Shown: piece by piece, positions 13,794-54,072 of the stretch
Layout: each line of letters begins with the position of its first letter
How positions within the stretch are numbered: position 1 is the stretch's first letter
DNA from: Marsupella aquatica
Lineage: Eukaryota; Plantae; Marchantiophyta
Length of the DNA stretch: 64,000 nt
Assembly: GCA_973895155.1 (NCBI GenBank)
Contig: OZ316892.1
Location: 17,660,357-17,724,356 of the forward strand
Reading direction: 5' to 3'
Program-made: the position numbers and the translations under genes
The notes under the pieces: generated by a model
Seen by the model: the letters and a program-made list of their open reading frames with translations, nothing else
Databases searched by the model: none
Told to the model about the DNA's origin: nothing

Positions 13794-13984
13794 CAAGAAA
13801 AGACTTAACGTGACCCCTCTGGTATCTCCTGTGTACTTGACCAGACCCTTGTGAGTAAGATGCCATCAAGACCTGGGCAAGATGACAGTCACAGGTCCTG
13901 TTAAGTCTTCTCTTGATTTCACTAGCATCTTGTTAGACTGTTAAGTCCAAGAAATGCCATAGGGGTCCTATTAAGTCTTTTTTG
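13794..13984. mobile_element. MITE family A, copy 1
   Basis: Homologous to the 18696 and 47430 copies; more diverged. Confidence 0.8.
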
Positions 13985-14434
13985 GTCTCATTAGCTAAGA
14001 ATTAAAAACTAGAAACTTAGCCTGAGAAAATCTACATCAATTAAAAAATACAAATTCTTAACATTGTGTAGTCAGAAAAATAATTTACTCTCAGAAAATA
14101 TACCTAAATGAAATTGTAAATATTGTTAGCATCTTCTGTTTTACACCAGGTGGGTATACCTTTGCAAGAGAGTAAAAATTTGCTTGATGGACCCTCACAT
14201 CAGAGTTTGCTTTGCAACCAACCCCTGATATTTTGAGTATATTAATTTAAGGTCTATCAACAGTCTGTAGTTTCAATGGGTCCATCAAGGAACACGTTTC
14301 ATTATGGGGAATCCATCAAGTAAATCTTTCCAAGGAAAATAGCTAAAGATAATCACACATAAAAATATAATAATATATGATATAATTTATTGATTTAAAA
14401 AACATAACTAGATTTATCTTAGTATTTTCATACA

Positions 14435-18100: not shown

Positions 18101-18695
18101 TATTTGTGCTCTGGAGATAGATGAAGTTATCATTAAACTTCAATAGAGCAGGCGAACGTACCCACATGAGGGTAATAAAGTGTTTGGTAGATTTTCCGAA
18201 TGATGAGCATTACGAATTTATCGTTCGAGTAAGTTGCATCAGTACTACAGCATTATATTATATTAAATGCATCATTTGGGTAAGACTAATTAATTTCAAA
18301 TTCAAAGCTTTCATTACATGTCTCATCTTTGTTTTTATGGTTTTTCGTGTGCCCCTTGGTCATGAAACCAAATATTTTGAGCTCTTTCATTTTGGAATTA
18401 TTTGTTTGATCGACCCCCAAAATGAAACTTGTTATTTGATTCACCCCCGAGATCTATCAATTGTCTACATCTGAGATTGAAAGGTCCATCAACGATCCAC
18501 ATTGGGGAAAAATATTGAGGGGGTTGATAAAGCAAAAATTTTCCATAAGCAGGTCTACTAAGCATATCTCTCTTCATTTTGGGCCTATGGTCTTGTCTTG
18601 CTACTTGTTGGGTCCCCTCAGTGATTCTGTGTTGCCTGTTCTCTTGCCGTTCCATGTTCCCTTTTATTTTCAAGACATTTTACTCACACTTACGA

Positions 18696-18879
18696 CAAGA
18701 AAAGACTTAATAAGACCCCTCTGGCATCTCCTGTACTTAACCAGACCCTTGTGAGTAAGATGCCATGAAGACCTGCCGGCAAGATGGGCAGTCACAAGGG
18801 TCTTGTTAAGTCTTCATGGCATCTTGCTGGACTGTTAAGTCCAACAGATGCCAGAGGGGTCCTGTTAAGTCTATTCTTG
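18696..18879. mobile_element. MITE family A, copy 2
   Basis: Same TIR and internal sequence (gtgagtaagatgccat...) as the 47430 copy; TSD not evident. Confidence 0.85.
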
Positions 18880-21800
18880 TATTTCTGACTATCTTACAAT
18901 GTGCGCATCCTCACAAGTGGAGTGGTGGGTTACTCAACAATCTTCAATGAGGCAAGAGTAATCCCGAGTTCAATTAAGATAAGAAAGCCTTTGATGCACA
19001 AGCTTATCCACATTATTATCCACAAGTCCTTAAAGCCAGTTCCATAATACATATTTGAGTTTTAGAAACCTTAAAATTGATTCACTTATCAGTTAAATGG
19101 AAATGAGGAATGTCATAGGTGATTTCTTGCAACTTTGAGTCAAACTATCTAGAGAGTTTGGAAGTGTTGTAGCTGTAAACATGCAGCCTCTCTAACCGAG
19201 CCTCCTTTGTCATTGTAGACTAGTTCTGAGCAGTGGATCCTAGCTCATGATTGTACTTGGTCAATAAACCAAGGCCAAATTTTAGAAAAGGAAGTTCAAA
19301 CTTTTAATGGGCTGTTTTTGTTACAATGAAACTGTTGCAAGCCTTTCAAGCAACTTTGGTGGAATACAAATGTTTACAGCCCAATATGTAGTGAAGTTTC
19401 ATGACTTATTTAGGTCTGGAGACACTTCTGCCAATCTTGTCTTGTCTTTGATTGATCAGATGAGAATTTGACATGTTTGATTATGTTTTGGTGCCTTTTT
19501 TCAAAATGAGAGGAAATTTGTTTGTAATGTTCAAAATTTGAAAATTTACTCTAATTTATAATGTCCAAAATTTCGCGAATTTACAAATTTTCTCTCCTGC
19601 TTAAATTTCTCCGATTACAAATTTCTCCGAGGAGAGTTCCCGAGGAGAAGGTAGTTTCAGAGTAGTCCTATAATAATGAAATATTACAAGATACCGTCTA
19701 CATGAATACTTGGTGCGGTCGAGACTAGACAAACCGTATTAAAACCGGAGTTATGGGTACGGTCCGCCTCAACTGTCATCGGGCGCCCACTATTTTCCCA
19801 CCCGGAGGACCCAAAGACAGCGGAGACCCAGGTAAGATACTAATGATGGCACGAAGCCCACAGAGCCTGGGCTTTGACCGAAGTGCGGTTACGGTAGGGC
19901 AGGTGTTTTACGGGGGACTGGACCGGAACGTACCGGTACTGCCTCCAGGTCAGTCGTTCCAGTTTGGGATTGACAGGTCCCTTTCTTTAAACTCTTTTTC
20001 CTATATTGGGTATGCATGCGTCACCGTGGTGTGACCGTAATCATCACTGCAGACCCTCCCACTTATATCCTTGTCAGACGCTTCCTATTCGCGCGGGATG
20101 TGCTCCAGCTCGACAGCCCGGTGTGATTAAAGCTGGAAATTATTTGCGGACCTTTCTGACAGGTTCAGGTGCAACCGTGGACTGATCATCATATCCATGA
20201 CGGGTAAGTTGAAGACCTGTTCCAAATCTTTCTCACGAATGGTTCGCTGCAGAAAAGCAGCGGGAGTGTTTTTTATATTTACCCGCGCCTGGGCCCTGCG
20301 CAACGGATTCTTGCCGCGGGAAATAAAAGTTTCTGGGCACGGAACAGAATCTTATTTCTCGCCTAATGCACTAATGATTTTTTCTCATGGTCTTTGTCCA
20401 TGGGTAGTCTTTAAGGTTTTCCCTTTTTTGGAGCGTGAGGTATGTCAGCTTTTTCGAAGGAGGAGCTAAAAATACTTTCTTTTGTAGTATTTTGTAACCA
20501 TTGGATTTCTCTACATTTGAAGATTGTCATTAGATTCTGGCTAGTTGGGTCTGTCATTGTGTGTATCGGAAACAGAAAGAAAAATTAGCCAGTTTTCACC
20601 AAAAGCCGGTGACAGTTTTTGTAGAGGTAGAATCTAGCTTATTTTTGAGTCTGGAAAAACGGTGCTCTGGGCAGCATACTCTAGCTGCAGGCGATTTTAA
20701 AAACTTCTGACGGGGAAGAATCCTTCTTGTTGTGGGTGTGTTTTTCCTTTCCATTCCATGCCCGTGGTGACTAAACGTTTCTGAATGGCATGAGAAAGAC
20801 CCTTGTTTCGTTTCTAAAGGGGTACTATTGTTTTCTCGTTCCCTTGCCCCCGGGCTCCGGGCACAGTAGTTTGTCTTTTATCTCCTCTGAGCACAGGATT
20901 GTGCCCCGCGGGCAACCAAAGTTTCTGAGGGCATGGAACAGAGTCTTGTTTATCGCCTACAGGGAATCCTGATATTATGACAGTACTGAGCGAACTCGTA
21001 GCTACGACTCCGTTCAGGTTGTTGCAGATCTCACACGTTACAGACTGTGTTTGACGGTTACGATCAAATTTCGGTGCAAAGATTCCTTTTCCAAACATGC
21101 TCAACTGACCGACTGTCAGCATGGGAGGGGGTGATGTAAGAAGATTCCAAGATAAATCAGCCCGCATATTTAGCATGCCAATGGTTGTCTTAAGACCTGC
21201 CAGGTAACGTTACCTGACCGTAGTTCCTCCTTCTGGGTCCCAATAAGTGAGTGTCCCTATTCGGCGAGATACTGTTGTCCGTTGGGGCTGGTACAGTTCA
21301 ACGCTGCACAGTCAATGGTGTGATCCACTGCATTCATATCCTCATTGAGAAAGATTCCCTCAAATGTGACTTATTAATTGTGGGGCATGTATGGTAAATC
21401 TCAGTCACTGTACAAATAACTAACCGTAGCACCCGTACCTAGTATCTACAGTGCCATACGATCCTGTTAGTGAGAATCAGGATAACCAAGGGTGGCATTA
21501 CAAGAACTCCGTGGTAGCAGTTTTTTTTCCTTTATGTGTGAAATGTAATCCTAATCATTCAAATGTATAGGATAATGACTATGGGCATAGAGTTATTAGT
21601 CTCTAATCCTATGATTAGAAAGTGAAGAAAAAATTATCTGTGAGCAATCTAAACACAGAGTTCAGTCTAAACCCAAACTTGACTTTCTGGGCGTGAGATT
21701 ATGGTTGTAGGAGAGGCCTCTACAAATCATGACAGATAGGTTACTTTGGTTCTGTCCCAAATTTCCTTGAAAGGTTCTGCACCAAATTCACATGCCAACA

Positions 21801-27800: not shown

Positions 27801-30572
27801 AACTGCCCTTCAAAAGCTACGGGTTACCCGTAGTTACCATTAAAAGAATATTTTTCCTGAAATTGTGGAGTAAACTGGCATGCTAGAGGAGAAGAGTGAT
27901 GAAATGTGGAACAAAGGGGGAGGTCTTGGACACTTCCCCTTATATAGGGCAAGTTGTGGTTGTTGGAAGGAAAAACTTTGCTCTGGAAAACCTTGTGGAA
28001 ACAAAAAGGATGCCAAGGAATGAATATGTAAAATGTCTCCAGGTCAATGGGGTATGCATGGTTCACAAGACCATCATTTTTTCAGCAAATGTTGCATTGT
28101 GTGAAACTGAAGGTGCTACGAACATGAATTAGTCACTTGAGTAAAGACAGTGATAGGTCTTGGCTTCAACTATTGTGGTTGACTATTCTCTTTCTGTGGG
28201 GTTTCACAGATTTCCCTTATAATAAATAAATTCTGATTGCTAGATTTTGATAGTAGATTTTGGCTGATGTGGTTAGTGACTAGAGGTAACTGGCTAACTG
28301 GTCAATTTTACGCAGGATGGCCTTCCAATGAAGTGCAATTTGGAAAACTTTGACTAGGTGTGAAACTGGCTCATCACAAACTGGTCCTTTCTCTCAGGAA
28401 TCATTTAGACCTTTTTAGTGAACTGGAATGGTAACTAGTAATTATTAAGTGGATGTATATTCTCCTAAATCTTACCTCCTCCAGTACTTGCATATGATAT
28501 GGACAAGAAAACAACCTTTTTTTTTGGTAGGCTTTCTTCCCGCAGGAATGCTGATTTAAGTATCATTCCTTGCTCTTGTAGTGATGAGGCTTGGTGGTGC
28601 TTGAGATGTGAGAGTTCTTCACATGAAGATATTATGCACTGTCAATGGCTTATGTCCAGAGCCACAAGAAATTTGGCGATGGGTGGGGATGGTGATGCAG
28701 TTTTTGATGTTGTCTCATTTGGCTACTTTCTAATTGGAAGCGGTTCACGCCATTTTGGGTGCGCCTTGTCACGTATTGTAGTATATTATACTATCTAGGT
28801 TTGTACATTTTGTATGTGTGCTATATGAGCCAATAGGGTTCAGTTTGGGTTTGTGTGGAGAGTAGTTCTCCAATTGTGAGGCATCGAAAGGTTATCTTTT
28901 GATCATGAGCCTTGGAGAGGGGAGCTTGAGTTGTGGCTATGGTGGGTGAGAGCTCCTTCTATGTAACATCAGTTCCTTGAGTGCAAGGTGCACTGGGCTT
29001 GACATACGTGTGTGATTGGATCGGGCGGGATTGATCGTTTGTTGTTGGCGTCAATCGCTGTTTGATTTCATGAAAGATTATTGTGGGTTTTGGACATGGG
29101 TGGACATGGTTTCACTTGTAGCCCATTCTCTTATTAATGTTTGTTTGTGCTTATGTTTGTCACGCCGAGGGAGAGTGCCTCTTATGCAAATCGGCATGTC
29201 CCTTGCATGCCCGCTAGGTATGTAGTTAGGGCTAGTGTACTACTTGAGTTAGCGACATGTTCTTGTAGCAAGCCTGCCTGGGCCGTTCTTGAAGCAAATG
29301 CGCTTGTTAGTGTGATGCCTGGACTTGGCTTACTTAGGGCATGTCTTTCTTTGTCGTGTTATGTGTATAGTTAAGTGTATACACATAACCCTCCCGTTGG
29401 GGCCCAGGTTTCTTTTCTTTCTCGGCCGCAACCTACTTCGCGACCTGCTGCAGCCAATAATTGCTGCATTGACTGCCGACTATTGTTGCTGGCTCCTGCT
29501 GCCACTGTCAACTGCCACGACCCATCCACCACTTTTGGCATTTTTTGGTGCTTATTTGGCGGTTAGTTGGGCCATTTTTTGGTGTTTGCCGGCCATCGTG
29601 CGACTACTTCCCGGCAGCCTCGGCCACCCCGCAACTACCTCCCAAGTGCATAGGGCCGCACACCCATTTCTCCCCTCGCAACGCCCCTTTCTTCTTTTTC
29701 TTTTTTGCCACCCTTGCCAGTAATTAAAGCAACCACGGGAGGGAAAGTGACTCCCTTCCTTTTTGCCCTGCCACAAGCAAGCGAGAGGGGATGGAGGGCA
29801 CGAGGCCCTATGGAGAATTAAAGCAAGGAGGAGAGGGAGCCAAGGCGGGAGCGCAAGGAGGGGGTGCAAAGCCCTATGCAGGGCTCATGCCATTAAGAGG
29901 GGCCCCCTGCATCCGCCCATTTCTTTCCCTTCGCCGAGTGTCCAAAGTGTATACACTTAATTCGGGCCCTTTTCTTTTTGTTTTTGGCTGTTCTCCCTCA
30001 TACACCGCGCGCGGGATGACAGCATACGGCACCAGGGCCGGCCAATCCTTCTGTTTTTGGGTCCACATAGGGGTCCGAGGTATACACTTTAGGGGGCCCA
30101 TTTTCCTCATATTCCTTTGCTGTTGCCAACGTCAGGTCATCTGCATATGGCTGCGGGTCCGGTGTATATACACCGGATGGTCAATTTGGCATATACATAG
30201 GCAAACGCGAAGGGGGCTAAATTTGCGCTTTTAAGGGTCATTTTCTCTGACAGGTTTTCTATGTGTTTACATATTTTGTACATTTGGCACCCCGGGTGAG
30301 CATGTAGCATGTTAGCAGAGGAGCCGAGTCGTAGCATCTCATCGCCACCAACACCCCGGTACCACTTACGGAGTGATCCACGGCCGTTGGTGCCAATTTC
30401 ATTGGAGTCCTGACAATTTTGATGACGTCAACAGACAGCAGCAGCACCCACACCATGCCATCCTTCTACTACATTTGGCGGTTGCTTCACCACTACCCCA
30501 AAGCCTACTATTGCTTCTTTGCCCTTTACCCCTTTTGCATTAGTGGTTGTTCCTGCTTCACCGACATACAAC

Positions 30573-31976
30573 ATGGATGTCAGCCACTCATTTGGCCGCA
30601 TTGAGCGCTTCAGCGGGCGGCCAGGCACTTTGCGTGAGTTCAAATCCACTCTCTACACTGTCGTTTACGAATTGGAGTTGAAGTACGACAACAATTTCAC
30701 ATATGCTTTTGCATTTAAGCAGCTAGCCAGGTATGTGCACCATGAGGCTTTGGATGTGTATGAGCAGCACTCGCAATGGATGCTTGCTGTCACACAATTG
30801 CCTAACCCTACCTATGCTAGTGCAATTGCGGCTGCCTCACAATTGGCATTACAGAATGCCATTGCAGCCCATGTTGTTGCTCCTGCCACTTCCCCTCCTA
30901 CTCCAATTCCTACCACTGCACCAATTACTCTCACTGTCTTGGCATAGGCTACATCGGGCATTTCTTCCACCATTAATTCCCCTGCCTTTGTTGATCCAGT
31001 GGGTGAGTTTTTCAAGGTTCTTGAATCATTTGGAATTCCCAATCAAGAGTGCTGACAAAATCATGCAGTTGGCCACCTTTGTAAAACACGCGATAAAACA
31101 TTAAAGATGATGTAGTGTCGGCTTCTCAAGCTGAAGGAGGACACCCAGAGCATCACTGACCTGGAGGCTGCTCATCACTATCTTAGTGCATTGGAGGGCA
31201 CACCAGCTCTCTATTCGCAAGTGTTGCAGCAAGTATTCTCAGAGTTTGGAGACAGCTACACATTGCTCAATGTCTATGACACTGTTGAGAAACTTGAGTT
31301 GGCCCATGCACATTATGAGGCCAGTATTGTGTGTCCACCGCAATCCAGGTACCAGGCTACTGCCCCTACACTAGCCACTTCTTCCCGTGTGCCACTATAG
31401 GGTTCCATGCCCAAGCCAGCACATGCTGCTTTCATGCTGCCATCTTGCAACTATTGTGGTAACCCTAATCACAAGGCTAATGAATGTAATATTGTTGTTG
31501 AGGACTTGTCTTGTGATTTTTGCGGGAAAGTGGGCCACTTGGTGGCAGTTTGTTTTGCCAAATTCCCAGAGAGGAAGCAGCTACGACAGCAAGCCACTCA
31601 TCCTGCTCTTGCTTCCACTCCCCCACCAGCTAGGAGGGCTCCTACTGCATCAGTTGCTCCTCCTTCCAATGGCAAAGCACCCGGTGCCAACAGACCGCCC
31701 AAACAGCAACAAAAATAACCAGCTCAAAAGGAGGCTCACAACGCACAGGCAACTCAACTACAGTCTTTGACTCATGAAGTTGAATCCTTATGTGCCCAAC
31801 TTGCCAACATCAAAGGAAAGTCACCTGCCTCTGCTGGTCCTTCTCAACTTGCTGGTCACGTGCAACCCATCTCTAGTTCAGGCACCACTGACAGTTCAAC
31901 ACCTCTACCTCGCTCTTTCTATGGCTTGCCCTTTGATGCTTATATGGGTGAGTGTGTGTTGTCCTCTGCTACATAG
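30573..31976 (+). pseudogene. gag: gag-like region with two CCHC zinc knuckles
   Basis: Starts MDVSHSFGRIERFSGRPG; CNYCGNPNHKANEC and CDFCGKVGHLVAVC (CX2CX4HX4C) in ORF 31407-31718; several stops and frameshifts. Confidence 0.8.
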
Positions 31977-32599
31977 CCTGGCCTTACAACAAAATTTTCA
32001 AATTCATTTTGCCCATCCTATTTTGCTTACCAGTAGGCCAGTGCTGCCTCCCATACTACTCTCACATGCCGCATTGTACATACTAATGGTCTTGCTGCCG
32101 GTCCTATGACTAGAGCCAGGGAAGCTCGGGTTGTCATGCCCCAATCTTTTCAGCCACTCACACTTGCTGAAGAGCGCACCTTATTGGCGAGGGGGGAGGG
32201 AGCTGCAACTACATCCATTCCATCACCAAGTGCTGCTGACATTTCACAGCCAGGATGTTGTTTCTCTTGAGTTGCTTGAGCATTTCACCTCTGATATGGC
32301 ACAACAGATTCTTGCAACTCCACTTTTTAGTTGCCATAATTTACAACTGGATGCCAGAGCTGTAATCAGAGCGCTAGAGGGCTCATTGCATTCTTCATCA
32401 GCCCCTATGACACCGGTTTTAGAGGTCCAATCTCATGTACATACTAGACCTTTTTCTTCTCCATTACATGCTTCCACTGGTTTGGTTGTCCCAGTACCGA
32501 TTGCTGCTGATTGTGTGACTAGAGCTACACTTGATTCTGGTCATGCTGCTCCATCTTTCCTAGCTATGTTGTTGAGTGGGAAGACCATGGACACTAACT

Positions 32600-33155
32600 T
32601 CCTTCACAAGGTACCACATCATTTGCCAAAAGTTGTGCCTAGCGATAGGACTTCAGTTTCCACCACCATTGCCATTGTTGACAACAGGAATTCAGCGGTC
32701 AAGTTGGAGGGTCACACTTCTCAGGTGGTCATGCTAGATACAGGCGCTCAACCAGTGATCTTGGGCATTCAGTTTGCCAAGAAGTGAGACTCATGACTGA
32801 TAATTTATAGCAATCTAAATGGCACATTCGGACTGCTAGTGGCACTATAAAGGATGTGCTGGGTGAGAGTTCTACTTTCCTCGCTCTCACTTGTAATGGA
32901 GGTACAGATTAGGAACTTCATTTCTCAGTTAGATGCTTGGTTACAAATGCCACTACGTATGATGTGCTCATTGGCCAGGAGGCTTTGTTCCCACCAGGTT
33001 TCACCATTGACAATTGGCATGAGCATGCATACTATAGAGTTGATTGGCCGTATACTGATGGCTTGCACTTGGGCTACATTCCCCTTGATCTACATGGTGC
33101 CCATACTCCCATGGCTCACCATTGTGTGTTGAAAGAAATGCACACAACTACCTAG
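32600..33155 (+). pseudogene. Retroviral-type aspartic protease
   Basis: VMLDTGAQPVILG active site at about 32730 and downstream YDVLIGQE flap/psi-like motif (ORF 32937-33155). Confidence 0.8.
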
Positions 33156-33392
33156 GTCAACCATCCATTGTAGGATTGGATTGAGGAGGATGACAATGAG
33201 GTGGCTATTGCACATATAGGCTTAGCATTTTCCAGCAATGTGGATCATCAACCAGAGGTGGTACAACGGCTCCAGGCAGCCCATGGACCTTTGATGGCTG
33301 CATTGCACACGTTTGACGACCTTGGGCAGCACAATGGACAGCCAATAGCCCCAATCTTGAACGCACCAGTTACATGGACTCCTCATCCGGAT

Positions 33393-34200
33393 GGCCTTAC
33401 TTTGCTTGAGCTTTTTGGTGGCAGTTCTACAGGTCTGCATTTTCTTTCTTCCCTCCAGATATCCAACTTGTCTAGCACTGGCACTTCACCCTTCTTGGCT
33501 CCCTTGATTTGATCATAGCTGGTTGGGAATGCCAAGGCTTTTCAGTTGCTGGTCACGGTGTTGGATTGCATGATTCTCATTCTGGCCTTTTCACAACATT
33601 GGTTCAGGTTCTCACCTGGGCTCAATCCCTTTATCCCGTTGTTGGTTATATCATTGAGAATACTCCTGCCATCTCAGTTTGACCAATGTCCACAGGTCAA
33701 AGAGGATTTCAGTGTGGTCCAACACTACTTGGGACCACCCCTTCTCATTGATGCAGTGCACTGTGGTTCTTATGCGCATCGTCTTCATAACTTTTGGACT
33801 AACCTTGCACCACCTTCCTTGTTGGAGTTAGCTCTTCACCACACATCGAGGGACACTAACCTCACAGTGGACCAGATTTTGGATCCTGACAGATCTTGCC
33901 AACCAGTTACACAGCAAGAGCCAGCACCTTGGTATCCACCCAATACCATTGGACAGCCCCGTGCTGCATGGCCTACATTTGTGTCCTTTCCAGGTGCACA
34001 TATATGCTTTTTAGGGTGATGGTCCTGGCCTGGTTTATCAACATTCTACCGGTACATGGAATGAACCTAGTCTTGAGGAGAGAGAACGGGCTACAGGCTT
34101 CCAGCCTGGTACTACAGGCCACACCAAAATCACCAGGCTGGCCAGGAATGCTTTACTTGGCAGGGTAATGGATCTTAATGCTCTCACTTGGCTTCTGGTC
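33393..34200 (+). pseudogene. C5 cytosine DNA methyltransferase domain inside pol
   Basis: Motifs in order: I LLELFGGSSTGL (about 33402-33437); III PDI (33455); IV DLIIAGWECQGFS (33506-33544) then GLHDSHSGLF; VI YIIENT (33647-33664); VIII DAVHCGSYAHRLHNFWTNL (about 33750-33806); IX EERERATGFQPGTT (34075-34116); X RNALLGRVMD (34144-34173). Three frameshifts, one stop, motif II apparently deleted. Confidence 0.9.
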
Positions 34201-34549
34201 ACTTGCATCCTTTTTCAGATGTACATTCATCCAGCATCAAGAGTTCTAGCCCTACCACTCTATGGTGCTGCTACATGGCATCCAGACCAGGTACACTTAC
34301 CTCTATTCAACACTCACCGCTTCAGTCCAAGTGTTGGGGGGAGGAGTGGGGGGAGGAGGTCCCTTGTAATGTGGCTGACATTATTTTTGAGTTTCATGGT
34401 GTGGATCAGACCAGATCAACAGATACAACAGGCCTTGGAGAGGCCTCATCACCTTATCAACAGCATTCTAGTAGCTTGGACAGTGAAGAGGCTAGCACTT
34501 TGGGTTCTTCAAGCACGAGTTCATCAGGTCCGATTCCTAGTGTTGCCAA

Positions 34550-35530
34550 CTACACATTCATCATGGGCAACCACCTGAGTAAAAGACACAAGGACCAGCT
34601 GCTGAATTTTCTCCTCAAGCATGAGAACGTGTTTGCTTTCTCTATGAAGGACTTGGGTAAGTGCAAGACTATGCAGTTCTCCATTGAGTTGGTTGATGAA
34701 ACACCTATCTTCAGGCGGAGACACCGTTTGAGTAAGCATGAGTGGTAGCTTGTGGATGAGAGGTGCCAAGAGCTCTATGAAGCTGGTCTTATTTAGCCAT
34801 ATACATCAGATTTTGCAGCAGCTACAGTGATGCCAGCAAAGAAGGATTCCAGTGGATTGTGGACAAAGAAGCGCATGTGTGGGGATTACAGGCCACTGAA
34901 CCTGGTCACACCCTAGGATAGGTATCCCATGCCACGGCCAAAGGAGCTATTTGACAACATTGGAGACTCAAACATCTTCACTCTTGTGGATCTAAGGCAA
35001 GGCTTTAACCAAATTTTGCTGCTTGCAAAGGACCGCAAGAAAACAACTTTCCATGGTAGTAACCAACTATGGGAGTGGTTGGTGATGTCATTTGGCTTGA
35101 AGAATGCGCCCATATTCTTTCAAAGAGTCATGGACCAGGTTCTTCAAGGTGCTGAGTTTCTAAAATGCTACATTGATGATGTGTTGGTCCACAGCAAAGG
35201 ATTTGACCAGCATCTACTTGACCTTGAGGAGCTATTCATGAGGCTTAAGAAGGTGAACCTAAAGATACACCCCAAGAAGTGTGAGTTTGGTGTCAGATCA
35301 ATAGTATATCTTGGGCATCGCATTCTTCCAAATGGAACCATGGCTCACTGGGCCAAGGTGGTATCCATCTTGGAAATGCCCACTCCTACTGATGTTCACA
35401 CTCTTAAGAGCTTTATTGGGTTGTGCAATTACTACCGGATCTATATCAAAGATTTCAATACCAAATGTTGCACACCCATTGTACTCTTTGTTGAAAAAGA
35501 ATGTGACTTGGACATGGAGTACAGATGCTG
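34550..35530 (+). pseudogene. Reverse transcriptase, Ty3/gypsy type
   Basis: RMCGDYRPLN, DLRQGFNQI, MSFGLKNAP, YIDDVLVHS, KCEFG, YLGH, SFIGLCNYYR motifs. Confidence 0.97.
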
Positions 35531-35555
35531 AGGCAACATTTGCCACTTTGAAGGA

Positions 35556-35975
35556 TTGGAGAAGCTCTCAGAATATCTGGTGCTGAGAAGACCTAATTTC
35601 AACAAGGTCTTTGTGCTACACACAGATTGGAGTGCCCTTGGGATTGGTGCCATTTTGGGCCAGCATGATGAGGAAGGTAAAGAGTACGTCATTGCCATAG
35701 ATGCATCCAGGAGCAACAATCAGGTAGAGAGTCATTATTCTTCTTATGAGGGTGAATGCCTTGCTGTTGTGTGGGCTGTCATACATTACAAGCCCTACCT
35801 CTATGGGACCAGGTTTACTCTCTACACAGACCAACAGCCCTTGAAGTGGTTGATGACTAACGACAAGCTTACTGGCAAGCTTGCTTGTTGGGCGCTCATA
35901 CTCCAAGAGTATATGACTTTGTGGTAATTCATAGGCCTGGTGTGACACATCAAAATGCTGACACTATGTCCCGCA
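35556..35975 (+). pseudogene. RNase H
   Basis: LHTDWSALGIGAILGQ, SYEGECLAVVWAV, LYTDQQPL, NADTMSR. Confidence 0.95.
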
Positions 35976-36138
35976 GCCCTTTGATTACCTCTGATGATTC
36001 CTCAGATGCACGGTAGGATTTTGACCAGGGTTCCATCCTGCCTACATTGCATGCATCTACCTATCTTGCTTTGCTACCATGCTACGTTGTTGACCAACCT
36101 ATGGTGGACATATGAGAGGATAATTCAACACTCTGAGA

Positions 36139-37296
36139 TTGCTACAGCATGGGGAATACCCCACACATGTCACTACAGCCCAGAGAGACCGAATTCAACA
36201 AAGGTCCAAGCATTACTTGTGGAAGGGAGATCATCTCATATGTTGCTTGCTAGACAGGGAAGTGGTGGTTCCACCCATTCATGAGAGGGTTGGCCTTATC
36301 CGTAAGGTACATTCTGAGCTTGGTTTTTTTGGCGTTAAGAGGACTTACAACCTCTTGGTTCCCCATAATCATTGGAGAGGCATGCATGGCCAGGTTCGGG
36401 ATATTATTGCCCGGTGTGAACAGTGTGATAGGGTGAGGACTTCTTTCACATGTCGGCAACCCACACTTCATCCACTCCCTATGTAGGGCATGTTTGATTG
36501 TTGTTCATGTGATTTGGCTGGAGAATTATCCCTCACATCTCTGGGTAATCTCTACATCATGATCGTGATAGAGCATTTCTCCAAGTGGATAGAACTTGTG
36601 GCATTACTAGATAAGACCTCCCGCAACACCAACCAGACATTCCTTCAACAAGTTCTCAGTCGCTTTGGAGCTTGTGCAGAATGTCTCACCGACCAGGGAT
36701 CAGAGTTCAGAGGAGAGTTCTAGGAGCTGCTTGATCAGGCCCTCATTGATCAGGCCCTCATTGATCATCGCCGGACATCACGAGATCACCCACAAGCAGA
36801 TGGCTTGGCAAAGCGCATGGTTCAGACATGCAAGAAGGGTCTCTGCAAGATTTGCCTCACCAAAAACAAGGAGGATTGGGACCTAGCCTTACTCTACATT
36901 ACCATGGGGTATAGGATGTCTAGACATGCATCACTGTCTAACTTTTCTCCCTACTTCTTGTTGTTTGGTCGTCATCCAGTTCCACCTTTTGCTATTGCTG
37001 CTCACATGCTTCAGGTGGTGGACTTGGATTCAGCCATGACTTGGTCTGATGTGATCTTTGAGAGAGTTGCTCTATTCACGAGGGTTATGCCCATGGCCAT
37101 GGAGAATTTGGCCATTGCACAACATAGGGACACACTGCATTATGCCCACACACGAGGGGGCACTTTTCAGCCCAAGGTCAGGAAGTTTGAAGTGGGAGAT
37201 TTTGTGTACTTGCAGCGACAAGCTAACGACACCTGGACACCTCTACCAGCCGTACTATTCTCAGGGTTAAGGCTATTTGACCGTCTGGAGTGCTAG
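36139..37296 (+). pseudogene. DDE integrase with zinc-binding N-terminus
   Basis: HSELGFFG...CEQC; DLAG; TDQGSEF; ADGLAKR (catalytic E to K); SPYFLLFGR; FEVGDFVYL. Contains a 15-bp in-frame duplication (tgatcaggccctcat) at about 36732-36765. Confidence 0.95.
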
Positions 37297-37417
37297 AGTT
37301 ACAAGGGGCAGATGGGTGCACAATTGCTGACAATGCCAAGAATTGCACCCCTTGTCATCTGCCTAACCTGGATCCCACCATTGTCACTTCTACTTGGATC
37401 CCACCTGTGGATTACCC

Positions 37418-37560
37418 GTGCAAAGTGTGTTTGCGAATTGATGATGCTGACCAGATGCTGCTGTGTGACAATTGCAATGGAGGGTACCATCTTTTCTGCC
37501 TTCGGCCTGAACTTACCCAGGTGCTAGAAGAGAACTTTATGGTTTTGCCCTTCCTGTGCT
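37418..37560 (+). pseudogene. PHD finger (C4HC3) C-terminal to integrase
   Basis: CKVCLRIDDADQMLLCDNCNGGYHLFCLRPEL, then WFCPSC after a frameshift at about 37540. Confidence 0.92.
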
Positions 37561-38644
37561 CAACGTGCTACCTGACTTTTCTTCAGCCCTCCTTTTTGGC
37601 TGTGGTCTGGGGGGAGATACAGAGGTTTACACCTCCACTACGTACATACCACCTCTTTTTCTTTTTCTTAGCACTTGTAAATGTGATGAGACTTTTTCTA
37701 TGCATGTTGATTGCTAGTGGGTTGCACATGTGCATTGCCGGTGCTTTGTATATTTTCGATACACTATGGCTACGATACTATGTGTCATGACATGTTTGGA
37801 TGTGTGTGACATGCGATGAATGTTATGTAACAATGTGTATGCACATGACAACCTCTGTCAATTTGATGAGGGGTGTTTTGATTAAGCTTTGGCATTTGGT
37901 TTGGGGTATCACTAATTGGTAGCTTTGGAAAGCCCGCTGTTCCTTGGAAAAGAAGGATGTGCGGTGATAGGAATTCAGATTTGAATTTGGAGAGATCTCT
38001 GATGATGTATCAAGATTGCTTGGATACAACGCTGGCACGCTTGAGGAAGGGTGGCCTTCAACAAAATTTGGTGGGTAGGATGCGCCAAGATTTGGCAGAG
38101 AGGTTGCTTTATATTGCTTGGATGATGGTCTGTTGATTGTGAACTTGTGGTTGTTTGATCCGGCTTGAAGTGAATCTTGTTGGTGTGGGTATTTGCTTTA
38201 TGCGTAGGTTTAGTTCTGCAGATGAATCCTTTTGGTGGGATTTTTGCAGAGGTTCAGTCAATCAGATCTCCATTTTTTTTTCTTTAATTTGGGATCCCTC
38301 GCTGCGCTTTGGACTCAGTCAGCCCTCACTTCTGCAGTGGTTGTTTTTCGCTTTTGTTGTGGGTGATGAAATGGTTGCTTTCCACTCATTTTTTAATTCT
38401 TGGCCTTGTCCACTTGACCAAATGGGTTTGGTCTTCGTGTGGAGGTTGGCTTGTGACCATTTTTTGGGTCTGGCCGCATCACTCCCTGATTTATTGGGTT
38501 CTCCTTTTTGATTAAGTAATTAAAGTGCTCCCTTCAAGACAAAAAAGAAGAGAAAACAACTGTTGCATATACTGCCACTAAAGATATGAGTAATTATGAT
38601 ACTACCATGATGATTTTATAACATTAATAACCAGAGACAGACAA

Positions 38645-45195: not shown

Positions 45196-47043
45196 ATTCA
45201 CGGAGGCGAGTCCCTGCATTGTCATTCAATGCACCTCAATTCTCCCCCATAGTCCACGGGAATACTCTCTCCATTTTTGTGTCTCACTTCAGTTTCAGGC
45301 CAGCCCCATTTTTGGGTCCCCCTTCAGTTTTGAGGAGGGCACAGATTTTTGATTGAGGAGTTCTAATGTTTGATGGTTTTAACTTATTCACAAATAATGT
45401 AAAACTATAATATCAATTTTAAAAATATCAATATATTTTTAAAGATAAAATATTAAATAATTATAAAATATTAAATGGTAATGAGCATGGAGAATTGATG
45501 CACAGAAGTAGTGTGTGACCTAGTGGTATTGGAGGTCAATTGAGACTAAGACGTGGCGTGTTCAAGGCACACGATGGGCAACTTTTCTTTTCTTTGATTG
45601 AGGGCATGGAAAGGAATGAACGTTGGAGGGGGCGGGGGTGTCTAATTGTATTTGAAAATGGAAATGGTAAATGAGATATACGTGGGGGGTTCAAGTAATT
45701 TGGAGATAGCAAAAATAACAAAGGAAACACCCATGAGAGCCAGGGAGATAAATTAACCTCTTTTGTTAATTTCCTATACCTGCCCATTGTTGTGAGGTGC
45801 CAATCATGTTCCTGGTGGGTAGTTGCTTTCAGTTTTAGGAAGAATCCAACAAAAGAGGTTAGCACAAGAAGCCAACATAAGAGGTTAGAAGTCAAAAGGC
45901 AAACAATACTAGAGGTGGTGTTGACAGGAGAAGAAAAGCCTTGTGCAACAAGCTGAGAAACCAGTAAGACAAAAGAAAGCCCCTATGAAAAAGGCACAAA
46001 AACCAACCCAGCAGAAGTCCCCTATGAAGCAAGTCCAAAAGTGTGTGGTAGAGAAGACAACAGGGCCGGGAGTGGTAAGTGTGCTCCAATTGACAGGTTT
46101 TGAAAGTTTGCAAGGAATTGGTGCAAGCATGGGTCTTAATTCTTTGAGTGTCTTGACAAATGTGTCAAGCACAGCACCTTTGGTACACTTGTTTTCCAGG
46201 GTAGCCAACTTAGACTATTTCCAACCTTGTATATAGAACCTGTAGATATGTGATTGAGTGATTAATTGTAGGGTGGTAGACTGCCATTGGCTTCTAGGTT
46301 TTCTATTGATTTGAAAACAAATTTCATGAATAAAGTTTTACTTCTTATACAATAAGATGTGTGCTTACCATAAATGGTTTAGGAGATAAATGGTTTTTTA
46401 TGTGATCATGTCTCCTCAACTTTTCTGTTGCTGCTATATGGTGCATCCTTGGTTCATATCCCCAAGTCCAATTTTTTTGGACATTATTTTAATTTTATGC
46501 CTGGCTCTGATGGGTGTCTCCTTTGTTATTTTTTCTATCTCCAAATTACTTGAACCCCTCATATATATCTCATTTGCCATTTCCATTTTCAAATACAATT
46601 AGACACCCCCGCCCCCTCTAACGTTCATTCCTTTCCATGCCCTCAATCAAAGGAAAGAAAAGTTGCCTGTCATGTGCCTTGAACACGCCACCTCGTAGTC
46701 TCAACTGAGCTCCAATACCACTAGGTCAGACACTACTTCTATGCGTCAATTCTCCATGCTCATTACCATTAAATGTTTTTAAATTATTTTATATTTTATC
46801 TTAAAAAATATATTGATATTTTTAAAATTGATATTATAATTTTATGTCATTTTTGAATAAGTTAAAAATGTCAAGCATTAGAAGTCCTCAAAAATCTGTG
46901 CCCTCCTCAAAACTGAAGGGGGACCCAAAAATGGGGCTGGCCTGAAACTGCAGTGAGACACAAAAATGGAGAGAGTATTCCGGTGGGCTCTGGGGAGAAT
47001 CGAGGTGCATTGAATGACAATGCAGGGAATCGTCTCCCTGAAT
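45196..47043. mobile_element. Non-autonomous long-TIR (foldback/Mutator-like) DNA element
   Basis: About 560-bp inverted repeats (45196 to about 45755; about 46490 to 47043); candidate 8-bp TSD tcggttac (45188-45195) / tcggttat (47044-47051). Confidence 0.9.
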
Positions 47044-47429
47044 TCGGTTATACAGCGGGCAGCAGGGGCGTATGCACGGGCTAATCATTGCTAAGTAACA
47101 TTGATTAGCCTCGATATTGCTTTTTGTCCTTAATTAGCTAAAGGCTCCTTGTCTTGTTGCTGTCAACGCTTTGTGTACTTCCTGGCTTTTGATACATTTG
47201 CCGGGAAGTTTTCACGGAAAAGATTTCCCTGTTTCCCAGCGAGCCTCACATGCACCAGCATTGGACTCACCTTTTGCTAACCAGGTTCCCTCTTGGTTAG
47301 AGCACTCCCACTAGAGCACACCAAAGAGCCCTGTCATGGGGGACATTTAGTGACCCCCTTAGTGACCCGAGAGTGTGCCTGGGTATCTACGCGTACCCCA
47401 CCCTTCCAACCTTTCACACTCACCAGAAA

Positions 47430-47616
47430 CAATAAAAGACTTAACAGGACCCCTCTGGCATCTCCTGGACTTAACCAGACCCACCCTTATGAGTAAGATG
47501 CCATCAAGACCTGGGCAAGATGGCCAGTCACAGGGGTCCTTCTAAGTCTTCATAGCATCTTGTTGGACTGTTAAGTCCAGGAGATGCCAAAAGGGGTCGT
47601 GTTAAGTCTTTTCTTG
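47430..47616. mobile_element. MITE family A, copy 3
   Basis: About 45-bp TIR CAA(G/T)AAAAGACTTAACAGGACCCCTCTGGCATCTCCTGGACTTAAC; perfect 9-bp TSD caccagaaa (47421-47429, 47617-47625). Confidence 0.9.
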
Positions 47617-50600
47617 CACCAGAAACAACTGAGGAAAGCTGAAAGGGTTGAGTGCACTTGCCAGAGCAATTTTGACAGACGTTTGATTGAAAGTGAGGGC
47701 AAATTGGGGTTGTCGACTTGCTATGGCGGGCTTAGTCCTGATTTGATGCTGCTATAATGGCTAATCCACGTTTCAGTATTTTGTCTTACTTGGACTTTCT
47801 GTTGTGTATTTTTTTAGTTTAATGGGCCTCAACAAGGTGCATTTGAAATTTGAATTTATTTTGGCACCTGTCTTCATAGTTTTATTCTTTGCTATCATTC
47901 AATCTTAATAAATAATATGCAAGAGCCAAAAAGAACTGTCATCACCTACTTATCTGGACAAGACATAACTTGTAACATGTTCCAGGATGAACATGCTATA
48001 TTTTGCTAGCTAAATAATGGAGTGAAGGAATGCTGCCCTCAGGAGGAAAGAGTCTGGCTGGAACGGGTGAATAGACCTGGGCATGTTAGGGGTTCAAAAA
48101 GTTGGCCGATGGGCTGGTCCTTTCCCTATCTTTGACCAGTTTGTGTACAATGTTAATATATGCATATATATTGGAACCAGTGTCTTTTTACATAACAAAT
48201 TAATCAAGAATAGCCACAGCAACTCAAGATTGTTGTACAACATGTGGGGGCCAATTACACATTTTTCTTCCCTCCAAGATTAAATCTGGACTGTATAATG
48301 AGTGCAAACAACTGTAGTTGGCTTTACAAGAAATAAGGGGGCCCATCATGTATGGTGTCTCACAAAACTACTTGCAAGCAATACCCAAGGAAGTGCTGAA
48401 GTGCAGTGCCTGTTTTGACTAGAATTTTGGAACGCTTTCATAGGTGGTCTAAACATTTCCAAACTTGGGCTCCTTCTTTCAAGAGATTTGCATTTATTGA
48501 AGTTCATTTCAAAATATTTTTGGTCTTTAGAACAGAAAGTGACCCTCCAGTTTACTTTAATTGGTGATAAAAATCCCAAGTGCCCTGACAAATGTACTTC
48601 ACATTAACATGAAAGCAGATCGAGCCAAAGTCTCCAAATCTAATGCAGCAGCCACTTTTGGACGAAAAAATAGTTAATCAAACCAAACCAGTAAGTTTTT
48701 GTGAGGTATGTGAGCTGGACATGTTAATATGGTCAGGTGTGCAGAACTTTGGACCTCCTGCAGCAGTAGCCTAACCTTTTGGCACAAAGTTCTAACCTTG
48801 TAAACCTATAGCTGGGCTGAAGCTATAAATCTGCAAAGCATCACGGGTCTGAGCCCTTGTCTGGTAGGTATGTTTGAATTTTGGGCAGGTTCATCATTTT
48901 AGGTCGCATTCAACTAAAAAGTAAAATTAGGGTGACAACACTCTTAACAAAAATACCAAGGCAATGCAGATCTACAAAAGTGCAAAAGTCACCTGATAGA
49001 ATGTGAAAGCTCAAACTAGATTACAACCGGAGCATAACGCAATAGATATGCTGGTAAGCCAACATAGTCTATTAGTATATTGGGTCCCTATTGAGACTTA
49101 CCCAATTTCACTGCACCTTACCTCCTAGTGTCCCTTACAACTTTTGCACAGGCCACCGCTCACCGCTTTCCATTCTATTTGAGCCAAGACTCCAGTAGTG
49201 ATTCCATTTACTCTTTAGACTGGTATGCACTAAAACAACACTTAGTAACCGCGTACAAGTCCAAATCCTTAATTAACCACCCTCCCTTTCACTTCAGACT
49301 TCATGTCCACCTCTTGTCCTTTGTTAAACTCCGTCCTTTCAACTTCTTTCCCCTGTCCTTGTCATAACCTTTTGACTGTGCTTTACAAAAAGTGGAGGCA
49401 CTTTACGCCTGTTCCAGTGTTTTTTTTAGTGGCGAAAATTCGCTAGATTCCACCTCCCCAAAAATCCTTCGCCATTTTTGGCTAAAATTCGCTACTTTTT
49501 TGCTGTCTCATTAGCCAGTGTTCCACCTAATCCCAGGCCCCATTAGCCAGAATCTAACGGTCCGCCTTAAATCTAGGGAGATCTGACGGTCAGGAACATA
49601 ATTGAATACAGAATCTTTTGAGCATCTTCTCCTTTGCCACACTTTACATTCCCCACCTTGGCGAAAAAGTAAAATCCTTAAAAAAAACACTGGCCTTTTC
49701 CCACCAAAGCAGACTGGGGCCACTTCTTGCTCTAAAGAGAGACCAAAATCTTTTAAAATGAAATTCAATAAATGCAATTCCCATGAATGAAGGAGCCAGA
49801 GTTTAAACATGTTTGGAGTTTGGACCACCTCTCGAGGTGGCCTCACATTCTACACAGAAATGAGCACTCACCATTTAAGCAATTGCTTGGGCCCACTGCC
49901 ATGTAGGTTTGGTAGACACCATATCTGAATGGGCCCCCCATTTTTTGTAAAGCCAAAAGCAACAGTTTCCACTCTCATTATAAGGAGGTCCCAATTCAAT
50001 CTAAGAGGAAATAGAACGAAGTAAAGGGCCCCTATTTCTTGTAAAGCCACCCTTAGATAGCTTACCCCCATTCCAATGTTTCCTTTCTTCCTTTTCTTTT
50101 CTGATTATTGCATTACTTATTATTACTCTTCAGCAAAAGGAACACTCTGGGATCTATAAGAGTTTAGAGGTTTGGATGAAAGCCCTATCCGAGCTTTTGA
50201 CTGTTACCACAGATAGGATATGTTAACTGCGAATATGCTAAAATGGATATCTCACGGGTCTGCCCCAGTATCATATATTCTTTTGAATCTATAGTTAATT
50301 CATAATCTAAGTCTACTCTCCATTAGATTGAACCACATACCATAAGATTCTGTACATTGAAAAATGATTAATATTTCAGAACACCCATAGGAAAATAAAG
50401 CCCAGATGGATAAGGCATTTGTTGTGAAACCTGGATGGATTGGTAAACTACTAGAGTCATCAAACTAGACCCAGGTAGCAAAATTTACGGTTTTGACACA
50501 AATCTGACTTGTAAATGGGCTCCTGAACAATTGCAGCTGCATTTATTTAGCTCGTGACTGGTAAGTGACGAGTAGCTCCTCCCACCCAAACTACTAGAGT

Positions 50601-52381
50601 CCTTCACAAAATTGAAGCATCATTCCCACAAGTGATAATTTGAGGCTCATGTTTGAAATACTCAGTGCTTTCTTCACAAAAACTGAAATGTCCAATGAAA
50701 GTCAGTTTATAACATTTGATCATTTTTTTGCTCATTGGAAAATGACACAAATGTTTTAAAAGAATCAACTTTATGAGATAATAGACAGAACATCAAAGAA
50801 CATGCTAACAAAATTTGAAAATAAATAGATATCCAAATCAAAATAAAGGCAGAGTGTGCCAAGGACCTGCAGTTCACAATTGGTTGGGGTGCCTCTAAAA
50901 ATCAATTGAGGTCATAGCCTTAGTAACAGTGAACATCCTTCCAAAGTAAAAGTGTAAATTGATAGATGATATCCCTATGTAAAAGTGTAAATCGATAGAT
51001 GATTTTACTCTGTCCTTGGGACAAGTAAAACAAACCCCTCTGTCGGTCCTGCTCTGTCCATCCGGACTTAAATATTCACACATAGGGGCAAGAAAATCCG
51101 GGCATAATATTCACACATGGGGGCAAGAAAATAATAGACAGTCAGTATAGTGCCTTCAAAATCACCGAAATGAAAAGAAAAACAGCCACACCATTCCAAG
51201 CTGTACATCCTGCGTGACCATTCCCGATCCATCTCTGTCGTTCCAGTCCACGACGAAAGAGTTGGCCTCAGACGTGGCAGCCTCGCATTGGTGCCCCAGG
51301 ACCCATCATAGAAAGGAGACTTGGCCCAGAAGGCTCCAAAAGCAGTCCCGTCCTCGGGTCCGACTACTCATCGACCGACGCGTGAGAACTGGATACTATT
51401 CTGGTCTCGCAACCCCGGACCAGACCTCGATGCACTGCGACCGCGGAGCCGGTCCTCTAATGAGAACCGCGCACATGGCGTAGCGGAGCTGGACCGCCAA
51501 TGGAAGGCAACTTACTGGACTACAGTCGTAGTAGATGGGTCGGGGCTGTCACAATCGGATGATATTTCTTGCCATCGAGTGGGACGGAATAATAATGATG
51601 GATGCAACTCTTTCATGGAGGTCGCTTTTTTTCGCGTCCATCGCTCGCCTCCCCCCGCTCGCGCGCCCTGTCCCCCGCCACCCCCCTACGGCCCAGATCT
51701 TCGCCCAAATTAAAGCATGGCGGCACCCGATATAGCGCACCGCAACTTTTTGGCCGGTACCGACTTCCCGGACGGATCCAGCGTATACTGTCGCGTAGTG
51801 ACATCTCGGTTCGAGCAAGGAAGTACGCCGAATATTAGCTGCTTTTTATTCGAGGCAATAAATGCCAAAATTGTGTTCGTGATTTAGTCCCCTATCTTTT
51901 CAACAAGAGTTAACACTAACCAGGGATGAGAATTAGATATTCATAAAGTCGTATTGCTTTTGAAAAGCCCATGAGTTTACCTGGAAACACTGATATGTCA
52001 AGCTTGCCGCGACGCATCTCGACCATGGTCAAGAGGCCAAACACAGGGGGTTTGCATCAGCGTCGGGTTCTACCAGGCTGTGACTAGAAACGTCGGGGCT
52101 GAACTGTGTCTCCGATCGATACAAGGCTGGTGCGAGGCGGGGTGGGGGCAGGGTCCGTGGGAGGGGAAGCATCGATGCATGATTGGCTTCCTTGAGCTCC
52201 CTATGCTGCCGAATTCAGTTGCGCTACACAATCGATGGGCATGATCCGAGGCGAGCAAGACAACTACGAAGAGAGGAGATGAATTGATTCCGCTTCAGCA
52301 TCCTTTGGTCATAAGCATTCAGAAGCTAGGAAATTTTAGGGATTTGCACCGCTAACCAGTCAATCTTTAGACTGTGCAACT

Positions 52382-53584
52382 ATGGAGCCATTTCAAGTTC
52401 TCCCGCCGGAGGGATATGATAGCGATGATGATAGCAGCAGTGATGATGAAGAAGCAAATGCTTCAAGCATTGAGCAACTCATGGTACTTCTGGTACTGTC
52501 CATGTCTTCGTACGTATCTTCAAATGATGCATTGCTTTCAACCAATTGAACTGTCAAGAGAAAATCAAATTTCTGTCAATCCAGTTGTGGGAGTTCACGA
52601 TGTGTTGAGCAGATTGCAGGCAACTCCAGATCGGTTTAAGGACTTAACTAATTTTATGGTACATGAATTTGTAGAGCTCTGTGCAAAGGTATGTCCTGTC
52701 ATTGAGACCAATGCTAGATCAACTGAAACCAGAGCTATTGTTTCAGGTCGCCCTTGTAAGTTGACTCTCGAGCAGAGGCTGCTGAATTTCATCTTATATA
52801 TGAAGCACGACAATATTATTCACTTTGACTCTATGTTCTGGAATTGGGCTAGATCTGTTGTGTGTGATGATGCTATATTCGTAGCATCATGCTTGAATGA
52901 TGCTATTGCAAATGAAATTTGTTGGCCAACCCCAGAGGAAAGGAGACAGTTAGCTCAGCATCATCCACAATTGCTAGGATGTATTGGAATTGTTGATGGT
53001 ACCCTTTGCAGAATTCGTAGACCTTATGAGGATCAGTACCACAACAAGTGGTATCAAGGAAGGAAGAAGATGTACTGCATGAATAGTTTTGTAATTGTAG
53101 ATCACCATGGACTTTTCATTTTTTTGTCGATCCTGGCTATCCAGGCAGCTACCATGATGTGACAATTCTTAAGAATTCTTGGGTTGAAAGGACAATGAGG
53201 AACTTGTTTGCTAATTCTGAGAGGTATTTTGAATACATCCTTGGTGACCAGGGGTACACCAGCCTGGAAAGATACATCATGAGAGGTTTTTCAAAAACAG
53301 AGATTAATGCCATGCACTTGGACAACAATTGTGCTGTGAGGCAATTCAATAAGATGTTGTCTGGGTATCGAGTTCGTGTTGAATGGGGCATTGGTGGCCT
53401 GAAGATGAAGTGGAGACGTCTCCAGAAACGATTCGACCTAGTCAGGCCCAAGTTTGTGATTACCTTCCAAGCTGCTGCTTTGATGACTAATTTTCTCCAC
53501 CGACGACGACAAAATATGAGGGCAAGCATCGAAGGTCCACAGGAAAGGAGACCCGAGAGACGAGGTTGGGCAGGAGACCCATAG
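52382..53584 (+). pseudogene. PIF/Harbinger DDE transposase (about 2 frameshifts)
   Basis: GCIGIVDGTLCRIRRP, VDPGYPGSYHD (after T-run frameshift at about 53120), ILGDQGY, FNKMLSGYRVRVEWGIGGLKMKW; acidic N-terminus from ATG 52382. Confidence 0.93.
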
Positions 53585-54072
53585 GGATTTGCAATTTGAT
53601 AAGACAACATAGATTCTTGTTCATATGTATACACATAGTTGCAACTACAGCCAAATTTTGAAAAATTTTGGATAGTTCGAGTAGGAAGGGTATATGGACA
53701 GTAGCTATTATGTATGAACTCAGTTCTTGAGTACTACTTATTGCAATAAAAGCAAGTCAAATGCTTTGTTATTACTTCAGAGTCATGTACGTGCATCCAC
53801 ATCTACTTCAGTCCAATTTGCTTCAGTCTGTGCTTGAGTCCAATCTTAGTTGTGAGCAAGACAAATTGTGGAATCACTACTATCAATGCACATTTGGATT
53901 GTACCATTCTCGACATGCTCTCTGTCAACAGATTGTAGATTAAGTTCGAATGCAACAATTACAAAAATGTTGGCATTGTAAACTACTTTCAGATCACTTG
54001 TAGCTGCTAACCCCCGGCTAACTAAACAAAACTCTCTGTCTACAAGGATCCCCTGCAAGTACTTTGATAGTT

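Follow-up and report, generated by a model that had tools for sequence, protein, structure and literature searches.

A Ty3/gypsy retrotransposon of the liverwort Marsupella aquatica carries a C5 cytosine methyltransferase (DNMT) within its Pol region, between the aspartic protease (PR) and the reverse transcriptase (RT). The domain, of the DNMT3 class by sequence and predicted fold, is a fixed part of an element family and is under purifying selection, like RT. The copy studied here, which lies in a 64,000-nucleotide stretch of contig OZ316892.1 (the window), is dead. Our preferred explanation, to which we give a probability of roughly 60%, is that its active ancestors would have packaged the enzyme, methylated the cDNA that they had just made, with CG as the probable target, and inserted after end-joining of the cDNA and opening of an internal palindrome.

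The element in the window

The window copy is a dead Ty3/gypsy element of an atypical kind, without two full terminal LTRs (Table 1). Its decayed domains follow the order gag-PR-DNMT-RT-RNase H-integrase (IN)-PHD, and the best solved-structure match of its RT is the Ty3 RT (4ol8/7q5b, 124/122 bits). A repeat search found neither paired LTRs nor a terminal direct repeat around the copy because it has the form A-coding-B, in which blocks A and B would each represent a part of one LTR. The right border of block A was placed by reference to the 291-bp A of siblings, to which the window block A has no nucleotide match. No tRNA genes were found in the window. A tyrosine recombinase was found neither in the 14 element ORFs nor in 25 long relatives, a DDE integrase and a target site duplication (TSD) being present instead; likewise, no chromodomain was met in the window element or its relatives, where a PHD finger takes its place. 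No aromatic cage is evident in the sequence of this PHD finger, which may be akin to readers of H3K4me0.

Contig depth, which is no measure of copy number, is high from about 28.8 to 38.0 kb, is even across the DNMT, and drops by two to three orders of magnitude past 38.0 kb (4 of the 10 runs listed); contig joints run from 29108/29144 to 37792/37793. The element is nested in another high-copy repeat (28800-29157 and 37793-38000), and contigs link both flanks. The stretch from block A to gag (window 29600-30410; L002:5850-7080 and siblings) is very variable in length and sequence, and most contigs depart from the window sequence upstream of 30414.

Table 1. Features of the methyltransferase-bearing element (window coordinates)
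Feature	Position	Strand	Basis or remark
Left TSD, TGTT	29154..29157	+	4 bp
Entire element (8,635 bp), A-coding-B arrangement	29158..37792	+	ends TGTCACG..CATGACA, 4-bp TSD
Block A, putative 3' part of U3 plus R-U5	29158..29450	+	begins with left att half-site
gag, broken	30573..31600	+	zf-CCHC by Pfam, with two CCHC zinc knuckles at 31443-31565; aligned by tblastn with P0052 and P0001, starting at residue 1
Aspartic protease, broken	32650..33150	+	DTG 32737-32745; siblings match gag-asp_proteas
DNMT3-type C5 cytosine methyltransferase domain, decayed	33393..34215	+	frame reading, Pfam, relatives' profile, tblastn
Motif I, LLELFGGSSTGL	33402-33437	+	frame reading
Motif III, PPDIQ	33452-33466	+	frame reading
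Motif IV, DLIIAGWECQGFS	33506..33544	+	GWECQ, Glu where Pro is usual; catalytic Cys at 33530
Motif VI, YIIENT	33647-33664	+	frame reading
Motif VIII, DAVHCGSYAHRLHNFWTN	33750-33803	+	second Arg replaced by His (RxR to RLH)
Motif IX, EERERATGF	34075-34101	+	frame reading
Motif X, RNALLGRVMD	34144-34173	+	frame reading
Reverse transcriptase	34671..35465	+	YIDD 35169; RVT_1 92.5 bits
RNase H	35560..35915	+	RT_RNaseH 114 bits
Integrase, broken: H2C2 finger and DDE core	36270..37300	+	Glu position is Lys
C-terminal PHD finger	37419..37568	+	PF00628 39.7 bits
Polypurine tract	37609..37616	+	G-run directly 5' of block B
Block B, putative 5' part of U3	37617..37792	+	176 bp as in siblings; terminal right att half-site CATGACA
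Right TSD, TGTT	37793..37796	+	4 bp

The methyltransferase domain

A first-pass annotation of this DNA had reported seven C5-MTase motifs in canonical order between protease and RT. Read directly from the three forward frames, all seven are present where claimed, in unpermuted order and flanked by the protease DTG and the RT YIDD. Motif II is absent because about 48 codons after 33437 have been deleted: the interval between motifs I and III spans 53 residues in the intact relative P0052 vs 14 nt in the window copy. The reading frame is broken near 33438, 33665 and 34002 and carries stops at 33473 and 34012, so that, with gag, protease and integrase broken too, the copy is as dead as the annotation had judged it. 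Intact relatives retain motifs I-X with the catalytic Cys, Glu and RxR, and the Glu-for-Pro of motif IV is common in the clade.

The annotation had proposed PF00145 as the check on its claim. Scored on separate pieces and ORFs, Pfam matches one of the four stop-free DNMT pieces (33479-33679, 24.8 bits, E 1.7e-5, the cut-off being 22 bits) and none of the three DNMT-bearing ORFs of the window copy. A profile of 51 natural relatives, none taken from the window, matches four window pieces in order (23, 77, 156 and 83 bits); the next best place in the window scores 3.2 bits and five shuffled windows give 3.2-6.8 bits. Profile ranking places DNMT3A (91 bits) before DNMT3B (79), DRM (58/48), HhaI (40) and DNMT2 (22), and the domain of an intact relative, modeled with a pLDDT of 94.9, returns DNMT3A/B/C as all 34 of the Foldseek matches listed (best E 7e-17). 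Sequence profile and predicted fold thus agree with the annotation in pointing to the DNMT3 class, an assignment to be read with trees that contain no host DNMT3.

The family and its spread

The largest DNMT piece retrieves 19 of 83 candidate proteins at 42-75% identity. DNMT3 lies inside a Gypsy Pol ORF in P0052, P0004 and P0341: Calypogeia fissa CAM6101866.1 (P0052) encodes gag-PR-DNMT-RT in one frame, as does P0022, and P0341 holds the full set through IN-PHD in a single frame. Named relatives, drawn from the best 120 of 713 matches and a further list of 72, come from the liverworts Calypogeia (two subfamilies) and Marchantia polymorpha (two), the mosses Sphagnum compactum and S. magellanicum, and the algae Closterium (three strains), Chlamydomonas eustigma and Cymbomonas; those with the same domain order are from Calypogeia, Marchantia, Sphagnum and Closterium. 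Klebsormidium is not among the matches listed. At 50% clustering there are 1,337 matching proteins with E<=0.001, and 205 of them reach 1e-30; 150 were examined.

The best 80 of 578 metagenome loci represent 66 distinct copies. PR precedes the DNMT in 72 of the 80 and RT follows it in 67, with no locus in another order, although DNMT-less siblings could not appear among loci chosen by their DNMT. These counts, together with a domain that has no target duplication of its own, bear out the annotation's view that the enzyme is common to siblings and is not a one-off insertion, and the Calypogeia, Marchantia and Sphagnum relatives uphold its placing of the lineage in land plants. In the majority of distant relatives the DNMT sits between RNase H and integrase, 53 proteins having the order RT-RH-DNMT-IN-PHD (e.g., P0074, P0017, P0366, P0372), with Chlamydomonas eustigma and Cymbomonas as named hosts. 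Pfam often overlooks the domain in these proteins: PF00145 is matched at E<=1e-6 in 7 of 25 long ones.

A second PR-DNMT subfamily has the canonical GWPCQ/GFPCQ and, in the protein sequences, ends after the DNMT with no in-frame RT (P0346, P0350, P0352-P0364, P0367-P0369, P0256 and P0077, and including Marchantia MARPO_0204s0011 and MARPO_0020s0163 and Calypogeia CAM6115131.1). Its members may make the enzyme at Gag levels or may be non-autonomous.

Selection and phylogeny

The motif I Gly, the catalytic Cys, the motif VI Glu-Asn and both Arg of motif VIII are the modal residues in the 66 copies, and they vary little or not at all in 26-51 distant relatives, where the search pattern biases the count for Cys. 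Between the window and the loci, pN is 0.24 and pS 0.76 for the DNMT (pS saturated in 69 of 80) and pN is 0.13 and pS 0.78 for RT, again with saturated synonymous sites. Among the 66 distinct copies, common variants have N/S ratios of 0.32 (DNMT) and 0.30 (RT) vs 0.81 and 0.97 for singletons, which implies selection on the DNMT while lineages were active and decay once copies had inserted.

In a DNMT tree (163 sequences, 334 columns, FastTree, rooted on Prorocentrum), all 48 PR-DNMT tips fall into a single clade (0.955) nested among elements with the RNaseH-DNMT-integrase order, and the window clusters with Calypogeia, P0022 and a Sphagnum-like family (1.0). In an RT tree of 72 sequences with a midpoint root, the 10 tips with DNMT before RT likewise form one clade (0.949). 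The trees leave out short or unclassifiable domains, host DNMT3 and K. nitens, and their deep nodes are weak. DNMT and RT distances are correlated (Spearman 0.61, reached in 0 of 500 permutations). A single capture of the DNMT and a single move inside Pol are likely on this phylogenetic pattern.

Permuted ends

Complete siblings have the form A-coding-B-A-B. Distinct sibling 3' ends are B-A-B in 14 of 24 cases and B only, as in the window, in 10 (L065 and L076 counting as one site); the mirror form, A-BA-coding-B, was found at 0 of 28 distinct 5' ends. The TSD is perfect in 7 of 13 complete insertions, matches at three or more of its 4 bp in 10, and is absent in three (L004, L034 and L043). 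A G-run precedes the first B in all 17 sibling junction rows, and the border between this polypurine tract and B is constant, whereas at the A|B joint most rows are precise and several show small losses; in L018 most of the second B has been lost at the joint with att and TSD retained. The att half-sites abut as CACGACA-RY-TGTCATG (18 junction rows). This palindrome and the subterminal repeats contain CG and CWG sites, and deamination of GC accounts for both spacer variants, AC and GT.

In 25 of the 28 distinct 5' ends, the end of the first A is complementary to a site 28-34 nt after a TATA in A, with a predicted self-primer pairing of 10-12 of 12 nt; a stretch picked by hand forms a 15-bp stem (z -4.9). 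The self-primer was not found in the window copy. Given the polypurine tract and the predicted self-primer, the true LTR is likely B+A, with the att half-sites abutting inside it. Insertion from an end-joined intermediate is, on the same anatomy, quite probable. Two further arrangements were seen in siblings: an inverted A block at L022:4898-5188, and a B-A-B end of a second element in opposite orientation at L035:9279-9967.

A proposed life cycle and its alternatives

In the life cycle that we propose, the RNA would begin about 32 nt after the TATA in A, and the 12-15-nt complement at the end of A would self-prime, as in Tf1. The plus strand would start at the polypurine tract before B, yielding a linear BA-coding-BA whose tips are without att; joining of these tips would create the A|B joint. 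Integrase would then cut at the B|A border, within the palindrome CACGACA-GC-TGTCATG, to give A-coding-BA-B; for A-coding-B, the window form, the source could be a circle with one LTR, two cuts, or B/B recombination at a later stage. If the circle were a simple one with two LTRs, the mirror form would be expected, yet it is absent from the 28 distinct 5' ends. A precedent for the proposed cut exists in the foamy-virus integrase, which cleaves palindromic circle junctions (PMC1180852). The DNMT, released by the protease or linked to RT, would methylate the double-stranded cDNA inside the particle, and the cDNA would thereby reach a methylated host genome already marked; the PHD finger is predicted to steer integrase by reading unmethylated H3K4. 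Because Gag, RT and the enzyme are translated as a single polyprotein, packaging and cis action on new cDNA are the simplest reading, one that is also a published hypothesis (PMC5890265) and that we rate a little above even odds. The related SymbioDIRS-Dnmt3 enzymes are described there as methylating CG in yeast.

The proposal supposes that the domain acts as a methyltransferase on DNA. It might have been retained for a non-catalytic job or for one that does not involve double-stranded DNA, such as binding or methylation of RNA or RNA:DNA hybrids, or scaffolding of the particle. KnitGypsy-Dnmt3 gave no methylation in yeast, a result inconclusive by its authors' account (PMC5890265), motif IV has Glu for Pro, and the DNMT is found at two positions in Pol, all of which would suit such a role. 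The catalytic residues, modal or nearly invariant as described above with the same bias in the Cys count, and a predicted fold that is fully DNMT3-like speak against it, and we consider it unlikely.

A second alternative keeps the activity and changes its purpose: the DNMT would control integration by methylating the att palindrome of the first double-stranded LTR, so that integrase opens only the other one. The missing mirror forms (0/28), the CG and CWG sites of the palindrome and subterminal repeats, and spacers that both derive from GC by deamination fit this idea, under which the outcome would be the sole permutation able to copy itself again. Yet to obtain the B-only form, seen at 10 of 24 distinct 3' ends, the right site must itself be cut or recombination must pass through it, and an end-to-end template jump by RT would yield the same asymmetry without methylation. 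We regard such control as doubtful. Carried to its full extent, it would describe a Ty3 clade that is ancient in the green lineage, reaches from chlorophytes to liverworts and mosses, and inserts only after end-joining and the opening of an att palindrome within the LTR, with methylation of the first-made LTR by the captured DNMT3 selecting the palindrome cut; this is a long shot, and if true would make these the first retroelements with integration gated by their own DNA methylation.

Thirdly, the enzyme might work on copies already inserted, or in trans, as a trigger of host CHG/H3K9me silencing of new copies; such self-restraint, which would reduce the damage done to the host, is raised as a possibility in PMC5890265. 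Inserted copies are indeed strongly deaminated, with decay of 0.20 at CG and 0.25 at CHG vs 0.07 at CHH and 0.02 at A/T. This is the pattern of host silencing, which implies that the enzyme neither protects the copies nor leaves a separable mark; host CMT and DNMT3 would account for it without the element's enzyme, and the family attained a high copy number. Self-restraint accordingly seems improbable to us. CpG depletion was also considered as a mark of self-methylation and rejected as unspecific, the observed/expected ratio being 0.24 in the element vs 0.23 in a DNMT-free Harbinger ORF of the window.

That a methyltransferase was picked up just once from the host or a bacterium, or that the assembly is chimeric, has nothing in its favor except that Pfam scores the decayed pieces weakly. 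It is refuted by the identical placing of the domain in at least 66 distinct copies and in named proteins of liverworts, mosses and algae, and by congruent DNMT and RT trees. Contig depth that is even across the domain, and phage and virus methyltransferases that reach only 25-44% over part of it (E >= 3e-13, best 80 of 480), also count against it.

Relation to known elements

The DNMT3-gypsy class has been published for the charophyte Klebsormidium nitens (PMC5890265). According to the description given there, KnitGypsy-Dnmt3 likewise has a Gypsy Pol whose RT/RNase H ORF includes a DNMT3-type domain without introns or rearrangement, is under purifying selection as the window's family is, and has repeats "as in DIRS" (A-coding-B-A-B), the arrangement of the siblings, of which the window copy is a reduced form. 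The family described here differs in its land-plant hosts and high copy number; its att palindrome, TSD, polypurine tract and self-primer have no counterpart in the description of KnitGypsy-Dnmt3 in the PMC5890265 text. Insertion from a circle with joined ends would account for the DIRS-like repeats reported for that element. SymbioDIRS-Dnmt3, as presented in the same text, also combines a DNMT3 in Pol with split direct repeats but has a tyrosine recombinase and a DIRS-type RT, in contrast to the DDE integrase, Ty3-like RT, TG..CA ends and 4-bp TSD of the window's family.

Tf1/Sushi and the moss Tcn1 chromoviruses (PMC6317226, main text) are likewise Ty3/gypsy elements; they have no tRNA primer site and are predicted to self-prime, a prediction made here for siblings of the window copy. 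They have a chromodomain and ordinary paired LTRs, unlike the PHD finger and permuted ends found here, and the main text of that survey contains neither "methyltransferase" nor "PHD". The integrase of prototype foamy virus cuts a palindrome of two abutted att half-sites, as we propose for this family, except that the foamy-virus palindrome is the LTR-LTR joint (PMC1180852), whereas here it would lie inside each LTR and the joint is without att. EpiLTR/DAM-LTR elements are also LTR retrotransposons with DNA methyltransferases and a chromatin reader; theirs are DNMT4-like and Dam enzymes with a chromodomain, in Euglena and Cymbomonas (bioRxiv 10.64898/2026.05.21.726589).

The portion seen of that preprint mentions "streptophytes (Gypsy-DNMT3)" as earlier work only and names no land plant, and PMC12344493 likewise cites the 2018 element as "streptophytes". 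The 96-genome table of PMC5890265 lists Physcomitrella with 9 DNMT genes and does not contain "Marchantia". A land-plant report was not found in the literature searched, which was mostly open-access and whose supplementary trees, unseen, could include bryophytes; the accessible parts of PMC12344493, PMC11244446, PMC6453930 and PMC6317226 contain none. LTR-pair finders would miss elements of this form, from which their omission from plant surveys may follow.

What is new is the tie between a DNMT clade and permuted, predicted self-priming ends. Published as an acquisition of a single charophyte lineage, the clade is old on the present data: it takes in chlorophytes, Zygnematophyceae, liverworts and mosses, and its domain has probably moved once inside Pol. 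Neither the permuted ends nor this spread through the green lineage had been noted in the first-pass annotation. With the end anatomy there is a concrete way in which the "DIRS-like" repeats, so far unexplained, could arise; it may also represent a naturally occurring integration via a circle, a route usually regarded as a dead end. Because Marchantia polymorpha, in which copies occur, is a genetic model for which methylation mutants exist, it becomes testable why a transposon keeps its own silencing enzyme.

Other features of the window

Pfam searches of the 101 ORFs outside the element returned the Harbinger DDE domain twice, ribosomal L18a once and one sub-threshold match. The first belongs to a Harbinger-like DNA transposon at 52371-55263, with a DDE_Tnp_4 transposase in two frames and a convergent 321-aa ORF. 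The second is a plant-type fragment or pseudogene of ribosomal protein eL20/L18a on the reverse strand (61893-62258), which scores 165 bits against its best entries, presumably flowering-plant ribosomes, vs 83 for the next group; taken with the liverwort and moss hosts of the element's closest kin, it points to a probable bryophyte source. The window also holds a 1.85-kb element with inverted arms of about 560 bp (45196-47043), a second long inverted-repeat element (48300-49974), three copies of a short MITE-like repeat (13773-13987, 18675-18880 and 47409-47616), and tandem arrays with a unit of about 86-99 bp (8060-8310, 8900-9500 and 12680-13320).
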